Shown here: positions 21,056 to 22,132 of the stretch, in pieces | Layout: every line of letters starts with the position of its first letter | How positions within the stretch are numbered: position 1 is the first letter of the stretch | DNA from: an uncultured Enterobacteriaceae bacterium | Lineage (GTDB): Bacteria; Myxococcota_A; UBA9042 | Reading direction: 5' to 3' | Length of the DNA: 64,000 bases | NCBI GenBank assembly: GCA_964560875.1 | Contig: CAZLMW010000005.1 | Location: 3,882-67,881 of the forward strand | Translations under genes and position numbers: made by a program | The notes under the pieces: model-generated | Database searches by the model: none | The model's input: the letters and a program-made list of their open reading frames with translations, nothing else | What the model was told of the DNA's origin: nothing

Positions 21056-21941
21056 CTACTTACCGCCGTCCTTCTTGTCGTCGCCCTTCTTGTCATCGGG
21101 GAAGCACTTGCTCTTGCAGGTCGCCTTGTCGGTGCCCTTCTTGACGCATTCGTTGTAGCAGGCCTCACCGCCGGGGTCCTTGGTGCCGTACCCGCCGGCC
21201 TTTTCGCACTCCTTCTTGCAGCCCTCGTCGCTGCCGCCCTTCTTCTTGCACGCATCGAAGCAGGCCTTGCCCTTGTCCCCACCGGCGCCGCTCTTGGTGC
21301 AGGCCTTGGTGCAGGTCTCCTTGGTCTGGCCGTCCTTCTTCATGCAGCCGTCGTAGCAGGTCTTGTCGAGCGTGCTGCCCTTGCTCAGGTCCTTGTAGCA
21401 CCCCGCGCAATCCTTGGCCGATTTGCCGGCCTTGAGGCATGCGGCGTTGCAGTCGCAGCCTTTCTTGCACGACTCCTTCGTGTAGCCCTTCTTGACGCAA
21501 CCGTCGTAGCACGCCCCATCGCCTTTGCCGCCGTCGGTCTTGGTGCACGCCTTCTGGCAGGTCGCGTCGTCGGCGCCCTTCTTCTTGCACGCCTCGTAGC
21601 AGGTCTTGTCGAGCGTGCCGCCCTTGTCGCCGCCCTTGTCGCAGTATTGGTTGCAGGTCGCGTCGTCGACGCCCTTGGCCTTGCACGCGTCCCAGCACTT
21701 GTCGTCGACGTCCTTGCCTTTGCCGCTCTTGGACGTCGCAGAGTCGCCGGCTGAGCCGCTGTCGTCCGCCCCCCGCGTCGACGGCCCAAAAGCCTTCGCC
21801 TGCGTCGTTTTCGTTGGTGTTGGTGGCCGCACTCTTGGACTCACCTTCGCAGCCAACGGCGAACACGCCGACAGCGATTGCAAGCCAGCCCGAAAGGAAT
21901 TTGCACGTCGTCATCTTCATTGCTCGCGTCATCATGTTCAT
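21056..21941 (-). CDS. Lys/Cys-rich twin-CX3C repeat lipoprotein (paralog 1), apparently frameshifted in a G6/C6 run
   Basis: The signal peptide MKMTTCKFLSGWLAIAVGVFAVGCEG (frame B, start 21920-21941) and the mature repeats CWDACKAKGVDDATCNQYC etc. (frame A, from 21883) are in different frames. They join if the C6 run at 21771-21776 is read as C5. Confidence 0.6.
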
Positions 21942-22132
21942 TGCTCTCTGCGCTAGCAGACTGCGCCAAAGCTCCGCCTCGGCGCAGGTGCTCGTTGTTT
22001 GCAAGGGGGCTGAAACAGCCCCCTCGACCGAAAAAAGTGTCATTTTTCCGGCCTCACCCCAAATTCGCGCTCCGCGCGGCAGACTGCATTTACGATCCTC
22101 ACGATAACCGACACGATTTACGGCGCAGTCTG

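Follow-up and report, generated by a model that had tools for sequence, protein, structure and literature searches.

We analyzed a 64-kb stretch of DNA (66% G+C; hereafter, the window) from the assembly GCA_964560875.1 of an uncultured bacterium (contig CAZLMW010000005.1, positions 3,882 to 67,881, forward strand), in which a gene for a predicted cysteine-rich lipoprotein is split between two reading frames. Translation of the minus strand placed a signal peptide and a Cys/Lys-rich repeat body in frames one base apart, with signal-peptide codons beginning at coordinates 2 mod 3 and body codons at 1 mod 3. The signal-peptide frame opens at ATG 21920 with MKMTTCKFLSGWLAIAVGVFAVGCEGESKSAATNTNENDAGEGFWAVDAGG, in which a positively charged n-region and a hydrophobic core are followed by a lipobox Cys encoded at 21849-21851. 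The repeat-body frame lies one base downstream, reads ADDSGSAGDSATSKSGKGKDVDDKCWDAC, and ends at a TAG codon (21056-21058), giving a body of 237 amino acids (aa). Between the two parts lies a run of six G residues (G6), and the GGG at 21772-21774, inside this run, is the final Gly codon of a GFWAVDAG motif in the signal-peptide frame. The parts of the gene, and the evidence for each, are as follows (ORF, open reading frame; nt, nucleotides).

21772-21920, minus strand: 5' part of the gene in the signal-peptide frame, comprising the signal peptide MKMTTCKFLSGWLAIAVGVFAVGC, an acidic linker, and the GFWAVDAG motif (translation and lipobox pattern)
21769-21774, minus strand: G6 homopolymer (C6 on the top strand), the frameshift site (run coordinates, Viterbi switch, plot of G+C content at third codon positions, and the same G6 in ENA contigs L010 and L011)
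21056-21771, minus strand: repeat body in the +1 frame, with an ADDSGS... linker, then Cys repeats and the TAG stop (translation, Cys spacing, ortholog colinearity, and AlphaFold2)
21165-21167, minus strand: stop codon met by the signal-peptide frame in the present sequence (translation)
21830-21832, minus strand: GTG from which gene callers in both ENA assemblies began an ORF of 258 aa that lacks a signal peptide
21906-21946, minus strand: 21-nt tandem duplication across the start region (AMNMMTR / AMKMTT; Tandem Repeats Finder and sequence)

Judged from its sequence, the gene product is a predicted bacterial lipoprotein of the signal peptidase II substrate type. We checked the lipobox with a PROSITE PS51257-style pattern. 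The pattern was matched by MKMTTCKFLSGWLAIAVGVFAVGC, by two paralogs encoded in the window, and by three database relatives (P0001-P0003).

The G6 run holds either one G too many, if the ancestral run was G5, or two G too few, if it was G8. Deleting one G joins the frames into a protein of 287 aa from ATG 21920, or of 294 aa from an upstream in-frame ATG at 21941. A G8 version likewise restores the frame, so that G5 or G8 yields a 287- or 288-aa lipoprotein with the junction peptide ...GFWAVDAG(A/G)DDSGSAGDSATSK. A preliminary description of this locus had already placed the signal peptide and the repeat body in different minus-strand frames, which our translation confirms. It had also recognized a six-base C6/G6 run at the break and a single lipoprotein after deletion of one base; both hold, with the run at 21769-21774 rather than 2 nt away at 21771-21776, and with a product of 287 aa (or 294 aa from ATG 21941) rather than 290 aa.

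As the sequence stands, translation from the signal-peptide start yields 251 aa, made up of about 52 native residues and a 199-aa out-of-frame tail that is rich in Arg and Gln (55 and 33 residues, respectively). The starts available in the body frame, TTG 21883 and GTG 21832, yield no signal peptide. The 21-nt duplication supplies alternative in-frame ATGs for the signal-peptide frame at 21941, 21935, 21932, 21920, and 21914. The same duplication, with its two sets of in-frame ATGs, is also found in ENA contigs L010 and L011.

Location of the frame break

To locate the break, we ran a seven-state Viterbi segmentation with a codon-usage model that had been trained on 11 long window genes. The model switched frames at 21767/21768, bordering the G6 run. 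A frame plot of G+C content at third codon positions (GC3) placed the change to the body frame at about 21800-21760. Among the same-strand frame switches in the 64 kb, the one in the lipoprotein gene is the only one without an in-frame stop; the remaining direct same-strand frame changes fall on in-frame stops, as at ordinary gene junctions. The segmentation found no other frame-broken gene in the window.

Alignments with homologs confine the break to about 65 nt (21710-21775). Because the window holds merely 10 G/C runs of six or more, the chance of one falling within this interval is about 1%. Elsewhere in the window, a further 62 G/C runs of five or more lie in coding sequence, and the frame stays intact at every one. 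G/C homopolymers are also far scarcer than base composition predicts, with observed/expected counts in the window of 67/227 at length five, 9/75 at six, 1/25 at seven, and 0/8 at eight. By these counts, the genome strongly avoids G/C runs. The repeat body itself has a GC3 of 0.92 and keeps its full codon bias and all of its cysteines, and the gene carries no second lesion.

A frame filter based on GC3 alone was too noisy, letting antisense frames pass, and was dropped in favor of the codon-model segmentation. A second suspected frameshift near 8121 turned out to be an intact 77-aa ORF that resembles ATP-synthase subunit c by eye. We also rejected a 16-nt "repeat" spanning the run (21756-21787), in which 11 of 16 positions match, probably by chance. 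The ORF at 49171-57637 (plus strand), which was part of the codon-model training data, extends over 2,822 codons with a GC3 of about 0.9.

Orthologs and relatives

The lipoprotein gene lies downstream of two genes that served to recognize its orthologs by position, and two intact paralogs are encoded nearby.

22133-23566, minus strand: DUF1552 (HXXSHH) gene, immediately upstream of the lipoprotein gene and the anchor for synteny (Pfam E-value, 2e-40)
23563-25476, minus strand: DUF1592/DUF1588/DUF1595/DUF1585 gene, the first of the conserved pair (Pfam; synteny in loci L002, L004, and L005)
25534-26451, minus strand: intact paralog 2 (305 aa), with signal peptide, lipobox, and Cys repeats all in-frame
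30023-30553, plus strand: intact paralog 3 (about 176 aa), with signal peptide, lipobox, and Cys repeats all in-frame

A search of a large protein database returned only three relatives (P0001-P0003; 36-40% identity), all of them intact lipoproteins. Just ahead of their repeats, these proteins read GEWWAVDAG, GEWWAVDVP, or EEFWAVDAG, and the window reads GEGFWAVDAG in the signal-peptide frame. Further family members came from an exhaustive profile search. The FWAVDAG-type motif is kept in P0001-P0003 and in at least eight further relatives. In at least 13 relatives, one high-scoring segment pair extends from the signal peptide via FWAVDAG across the repaired junction into the first CX3C repeat. 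The junction of one relative (P0075), VDAGAD, is exactly that of the G5 repair; that of another (P0005), VDAGGGGD, is compatible with a G8 ancestor. The nearest database relatives carry the label Myxococcales.

Positional orthologs were found in four loci (L001, L002, L003, and L005), where each is a single ORF of 317-411 aa directly downstream of DUF1552. The order in L002 (DUF1592-family, DUF1552, lipoprotein) matches that of the window. DUF1552 lies directly upstream of the lipoprotein gene in L001 and L003 (with 81% identity between the L003 fragment and its counterpart in the window), and in L005, a metagenome locus, the fourth single-ORF ortholog starts 3 nt past the DUF1552 gene. Paralogs 2 and 3 of the window are likewise single ORFs with lipoboxes. 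At the site of the run, the ortholog DNA reads GAC GCC GGT ACG, GAC GTG CCA GAT, GAC GCC GGC ACG, or GTG GAT GGC AGT. No G/C run of six or more occurs anywhere in the gene among the four orthologs, nor in the two window paralogs.

Scans of GTDB genomes with the fused protein and with its DUF1552 neighbor gave no match. A metagenome scan gave none with the fused protein and only relatives at 55-58% with DUF1552. Exact look-ups of both DUF1552 start variants were also without a match, because the window protein differs from the recorded alleles. Protein-cluster look-ups of the 258- and 275-aa ORFs had no match and hence neither found nor excluded an intact allele.

Because the orthologs and relatives are single ORFs over the junction, the comparison strongly supports the reading that the signal peptide and the repeat body belong to the same lipoprotein gene, into which an indel of one base in a homopolymer has introduced a frameshift.

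The G6 run in other assemblies

The same species was located in other assemblies through exact look-ups of neighboring proteins. Contigs from Logan (SRR5211068) and JGI (3300009481) end inside DUF1552, short of the G6 site. The site is spanned by two ENA contigs, ERZ27251152 k141_591830 (L010; 103 kb) and ERZ27249630 k141_359642 (L011; 27.5 kb), both of which read ...GACGC GGGGGG CGGAC..., that is, G6. We take their "k141_" names to be MEGAHIT naming and the contigs to be, presumably, of short-read origin.

The window differs from L010 by 22 substitutions in 14.8 kb and from L011 by 15 in 11.5 kb, and L010 differs from L011 by 9 in 11.5 kb. The ENA contigs are 99.7% identical to the window and 99.9% identical to each other. 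They also differ from the window in a tandem array next to the gene.

20994-21048, minus strand: perfect 17-nt tandem array GCAAGTAGCTGTCAGGG, directly past the stop codon (Tandem Repeats Finder and contig comparison)

The copies in this array are 100% identical, with three full copies in the window and two in L010 and L011. Because the substitutions and the number of 17-nt copies differ, the ENA contigs are not copies of the window. The shared 14.8 kb contains 20 homopolymers of five or more (12 G/C and 8 A/T). Since all 20 have the same length in the sequences compared, no homopolymer noise is detectable. In both ENA assemblies, gene callers reported only the 258-aa ORF from GTG 21832, which lacks a signal peptide. 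Collectively, these results make it very unlikely that G6 is an assembly error and indicate that the lesion is present in the DNA.

Interpretation of the split gene

We consider it highly probable that a real slippage insertion, common to all three sequences, has turned this gene into a young pseudogene. The lipoprotein gene closes a conserved cluster of DUF1592-family, DUF1552, and Cys-repeat lipoprotein genes. A one-base insertion (G5 to G6) would have broken it, a two-base loss from G8 being less likely, and replication slippage is the most plausible cause. Ribosomes starting at the signal peptide would make about 52 native residues and then read 199 codons out of frame, and the Cys/Lys body could be translated only from the internal GTG or TTG, which would give it no export signal. 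The gene would then be functionally off and hence a young pseudogene, a loss that the two intact nearby paralogs could make tolerable. The lesion is predicted to be young because the body retains its full codon bias and every cysteine. Recent pseudogenization was among the alternatives named in the preliminary description, and the intact orthologs, together with G6 in three assemblies, support it. The comparison of run length among orthologs that was proposed there has now been carried out, with no run at the site in four orthologs.

The case closely resembles homopolymer-slippage frameshift pseudogenes, the "frameshifted" class of genome annotation. It shares with them a single-base indel in a mononucleotide run, intact orthologs and paralogs, the lack of a frame-restoring signal, and a break that is reproducible in independent assemblies. 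The difference is nothing essential; only the apparent youth of the lesion and the uncharacterized family are unusual here. The event is thus of an ordinary kind, and what is new is this instance in an uncharacterized gene family.

Several points weigh against a pseudogene. The three sequences are identical over the gene save for the 17-nt repeat, and their agreement is evidence of independent sequencing and assembly, not of independent or long evolutionary retention. The comparison covers assembled sequences, in which minority run-length alleles may go unseen. The short-read status of the ENA contigs is inferred from contig names. Moreover, intact codon bias in the body and the lack of a second lesion equally fit a functional, recoded, or switchable gene.

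Four alternatives were weighed. One is that the true run is G5 and the extra G a consensus error. Indel errors classically arise in homopolymers, no other fault is seen in the gene, and the case is judged from assemblies. However, three separately assembled, non-identical sequences agree on G6, run lengths agree at the 20 homopolymers (five or more) shared over 14.8 kb, and no frame is lost at the 62 remaining coding runs of G/C in the window (length five or more). The ENA contigs also resemble short-read assemblies, judging from their names, and a 6-mer is not error-prone in such assemblies. An assembly indel, as the preliminary description had proposed among its alternatives, is now highly improbable, with the same G6 in two independent, non-identical assemblies. 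The gene callers, which did call the 258-aa ORF from GTG 21832, would agree with a second alternative of two separate ORFs, one for a short secreted peptide and the other, independently started, for a Cys-rich protein. Yet this ORF has no signal peptide and encodes 28 Cys in a disulfide-type spacing that needs export. Its first 21 residues overlap the stretch where the signal-peptide frame has FWAVDAG and the linker, and every relative is a single ORF. The opposing scenario in the preliminary description, in which orthologs have a separate start and the two ORFs are independent, is refuted by the single-ORF orthologs, and we give it next to no credence.

As a third alternative, the G run could be a slipped-strand, reversible switch (G5 or G8 on, G6 off) in populations that were mostly off when sampled. 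In Bordetella bvgS, a run of six C is reported to act as a low-frequency frameshift switch; if so, a length of six is not impossible. The G run occupies the 5' part of a gene for a surface protein, and changing its length by one step toggles the frame; the gene has no other lesion and a body GC3 of 0.92; and other slippage-prone repeats occur at the locus, one of them polymorphic between strains. In its 5' G/C run and one-base toggling, the locus is like the homopolymeric tracts that control phase variation in Campylobacter and Neisseria (poly-G/C) and the 7C tract of Mycobacterium tuberculosis glpK (PMC6321876, PMC10334774, 10.1101/717272). However, published screens for phase-variable tracts take seven or more G/C as their cut-off (PMC6321876, Campylobacter; PMC10334774, M. 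tuberculosis), and the tract here is six. The window, L010, and L011 are all G6, with no length polymorphism; the four orthologs have no tract at the site, and the paralogs have no run of six or more. G/C runs are depleted rather than enriched in the genome (9 observed versus about 75 expected at length six). Low-frequency reversion by slippage is physically possible. Phase variation, also raised in the preliminary description, is left without positive support and seems to us unlikely. We know of no description of homopolymer-driven phase variation in Myxococcales.

Alternatively, programmed +1 ribosomal frameshifting or transcriptional slippage on the G run could restore the full-length lipoprotein. 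The shift needed is indeed +1, and a tRNA-Gly paired with GGG could find a perfect match in the GGG that follows, which recalls programmed +1 frameshifting of the prfB/RF2 type, where the P-site codon is able to re-pair in the +1 frame. The broken allele is also common to three strains without further decay. Unlike in the prfB/RF2 type, no in-frame stop, rare codon, or hungry codon occupies the A site; GGC comes next and is used more than any other Gly codon (74 per 1000). No correctly spaced Shine-Dalgarno-like stimulator was identified at the G6 site, and the 79 nt of downstream RNA fold no better than shuffled sequences (z = -0.25). No ortholog or relative has a frameshift at the site, so there is nothing conserved there. 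Transcriptional slippage is not known from runs shorter than about nine. Recoding, as such, is very unlikely. Taking the two mechanisms together, we see a slim chance that G6 represents the off position of a reversible switch operating at low frequency, or that unconventional +1 recoding reads through it. In either case, an uncultured bacterium would be regulating a twin-CX3C surface lipoprotein by this means.

Under the favored interpretation of a young pseudogene, the locus would be annotated as one frameshifted lipoprotein gene (pseudogene) rather than as a hypothetical protein of 258 or 275 aa next to a signal peptide left unannotated. The analysis also indicates that a homopolymer frameshift in a metagenome is checkable without reads, through independent assemblies of the same species. 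The wider interest lies in the gene family rather than in the frameshift, that is, in uncharacterized twin-CX3C lipoproteins that carry an FWAVDAG-type motif and are consistently encoded beside DUF1592/DUF1552 pairs.

Predicted structure of the repeat body

Six CX3C-X9/10-CX3C units and one variant (CDCNAACLKAGKSAKDCAGC) account for the 28 Cys of the body, which also has 50 Lys and 41 acidic residues (Asp plus Glu); Gly/Lys/Asp linkers separate the units. When modeled using AlphaFold2 from a shallow alignment, each unit formed one helix-turn-helix. The predicted local distance difference test (pLDDT) score was 70-84 in the hairpins and <50 in the linkers, and the predicted template modeling (pTM) score was 0.28. 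A Foldseek search of the model against PDB gave no significant match. Matches to the Pfam families Thionin and Hefutoxin were sub-threshold or marginal only, and they arise because these families have the same Cys spacing. On the basis of the model, the body is most likely a string of disulfide-stapled helical hairpins that would be lipid-anchored to the membrane, where the lipoprotein presumably has its role together with the DUF1592/DUF1552 pair.

Twin-CX3C hairpins are known from the small Tim proteins, plant alpha-hairpinins, thionins, and scorpion kappa-hefutoxins, with which the body shares the CX3C-X9/10-CX3C spacing and the predicted helix-turn-helix. Unlike these proteins, the predicted product here has six tandem units plus a variant, is a bacterial lipoprotein, is very Lys-rich, and is linked to DUF1592/DUF1552. 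The likeness does not amount to evidence of homology.

Gene family and flanking sequences

Members of the family share an architecture of a signal peptide, an acidic linker, a motif of the [FWC]W[AC][VI]D[AV]G type, and tandem twin-CX3C hairpins. A member lies directly downstream of the DUF1592-family/DUF1552 pair in four of the five loci with downstream flank. In the window, a second lipoprotein paralog lies directly upstream of the pair.

Between the lipoprotein stop codon and the start of an MMPL/RND gene, the spacer is filled by two 17-nt tandem arrays (20994-21048 and 20933-20980), and a degenerate extra 17-nt copy includes the TAG stop of the lipoprotein gene. The first of these arrays is a copy-number polymorphism between strains, as seen from the contig comparison above. 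The spacer on the other side, between DUF1552 and the lipoprotein gene, measures 191-212 nt in the window and 3-58 nt in orthologs. It contains a perfect 8-bp G+C-rich hairpin, GGGGGCTG-TTT-CAGCCCCC, at 22005-22023, with a T6 run ahead of it on the minus strand and no T-tail after it.

Most of the substitutions between the window and L010 (18 of 22) cluster at 23072-24097, in the N-terminal part of DUF1552 and the C-terminus of the DUF1592-family gene. The Logan and JGI contigs end near this cluster, at 22443 and 23112. Assemblies may break here at a hot spot of strain variation.

The three orthologs P0001-P0003 bear an extra C-terminal domain of about 110 aa (CAGGYCHG ... IKDWITAGAK), and no relic of it was found downstream of the window gene. 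We considered its absence as a sign of decay and rejected this idea; because repeat-only relatives exist (P0013, P0067, and P0020), absence of the domain is a normal architecture. The domain follows the pattern W..VH..I..CAGGYCHG ... HGCGKKMP ... IKDWITAGAK and has no Pfam match. In a representative library, about 3,200 matches were obtained at E ≤0.001, most of them to this domain, in proteins ranging from 70 to 3,500 aa. The domain therefore appears to be a widespread unannotated module.
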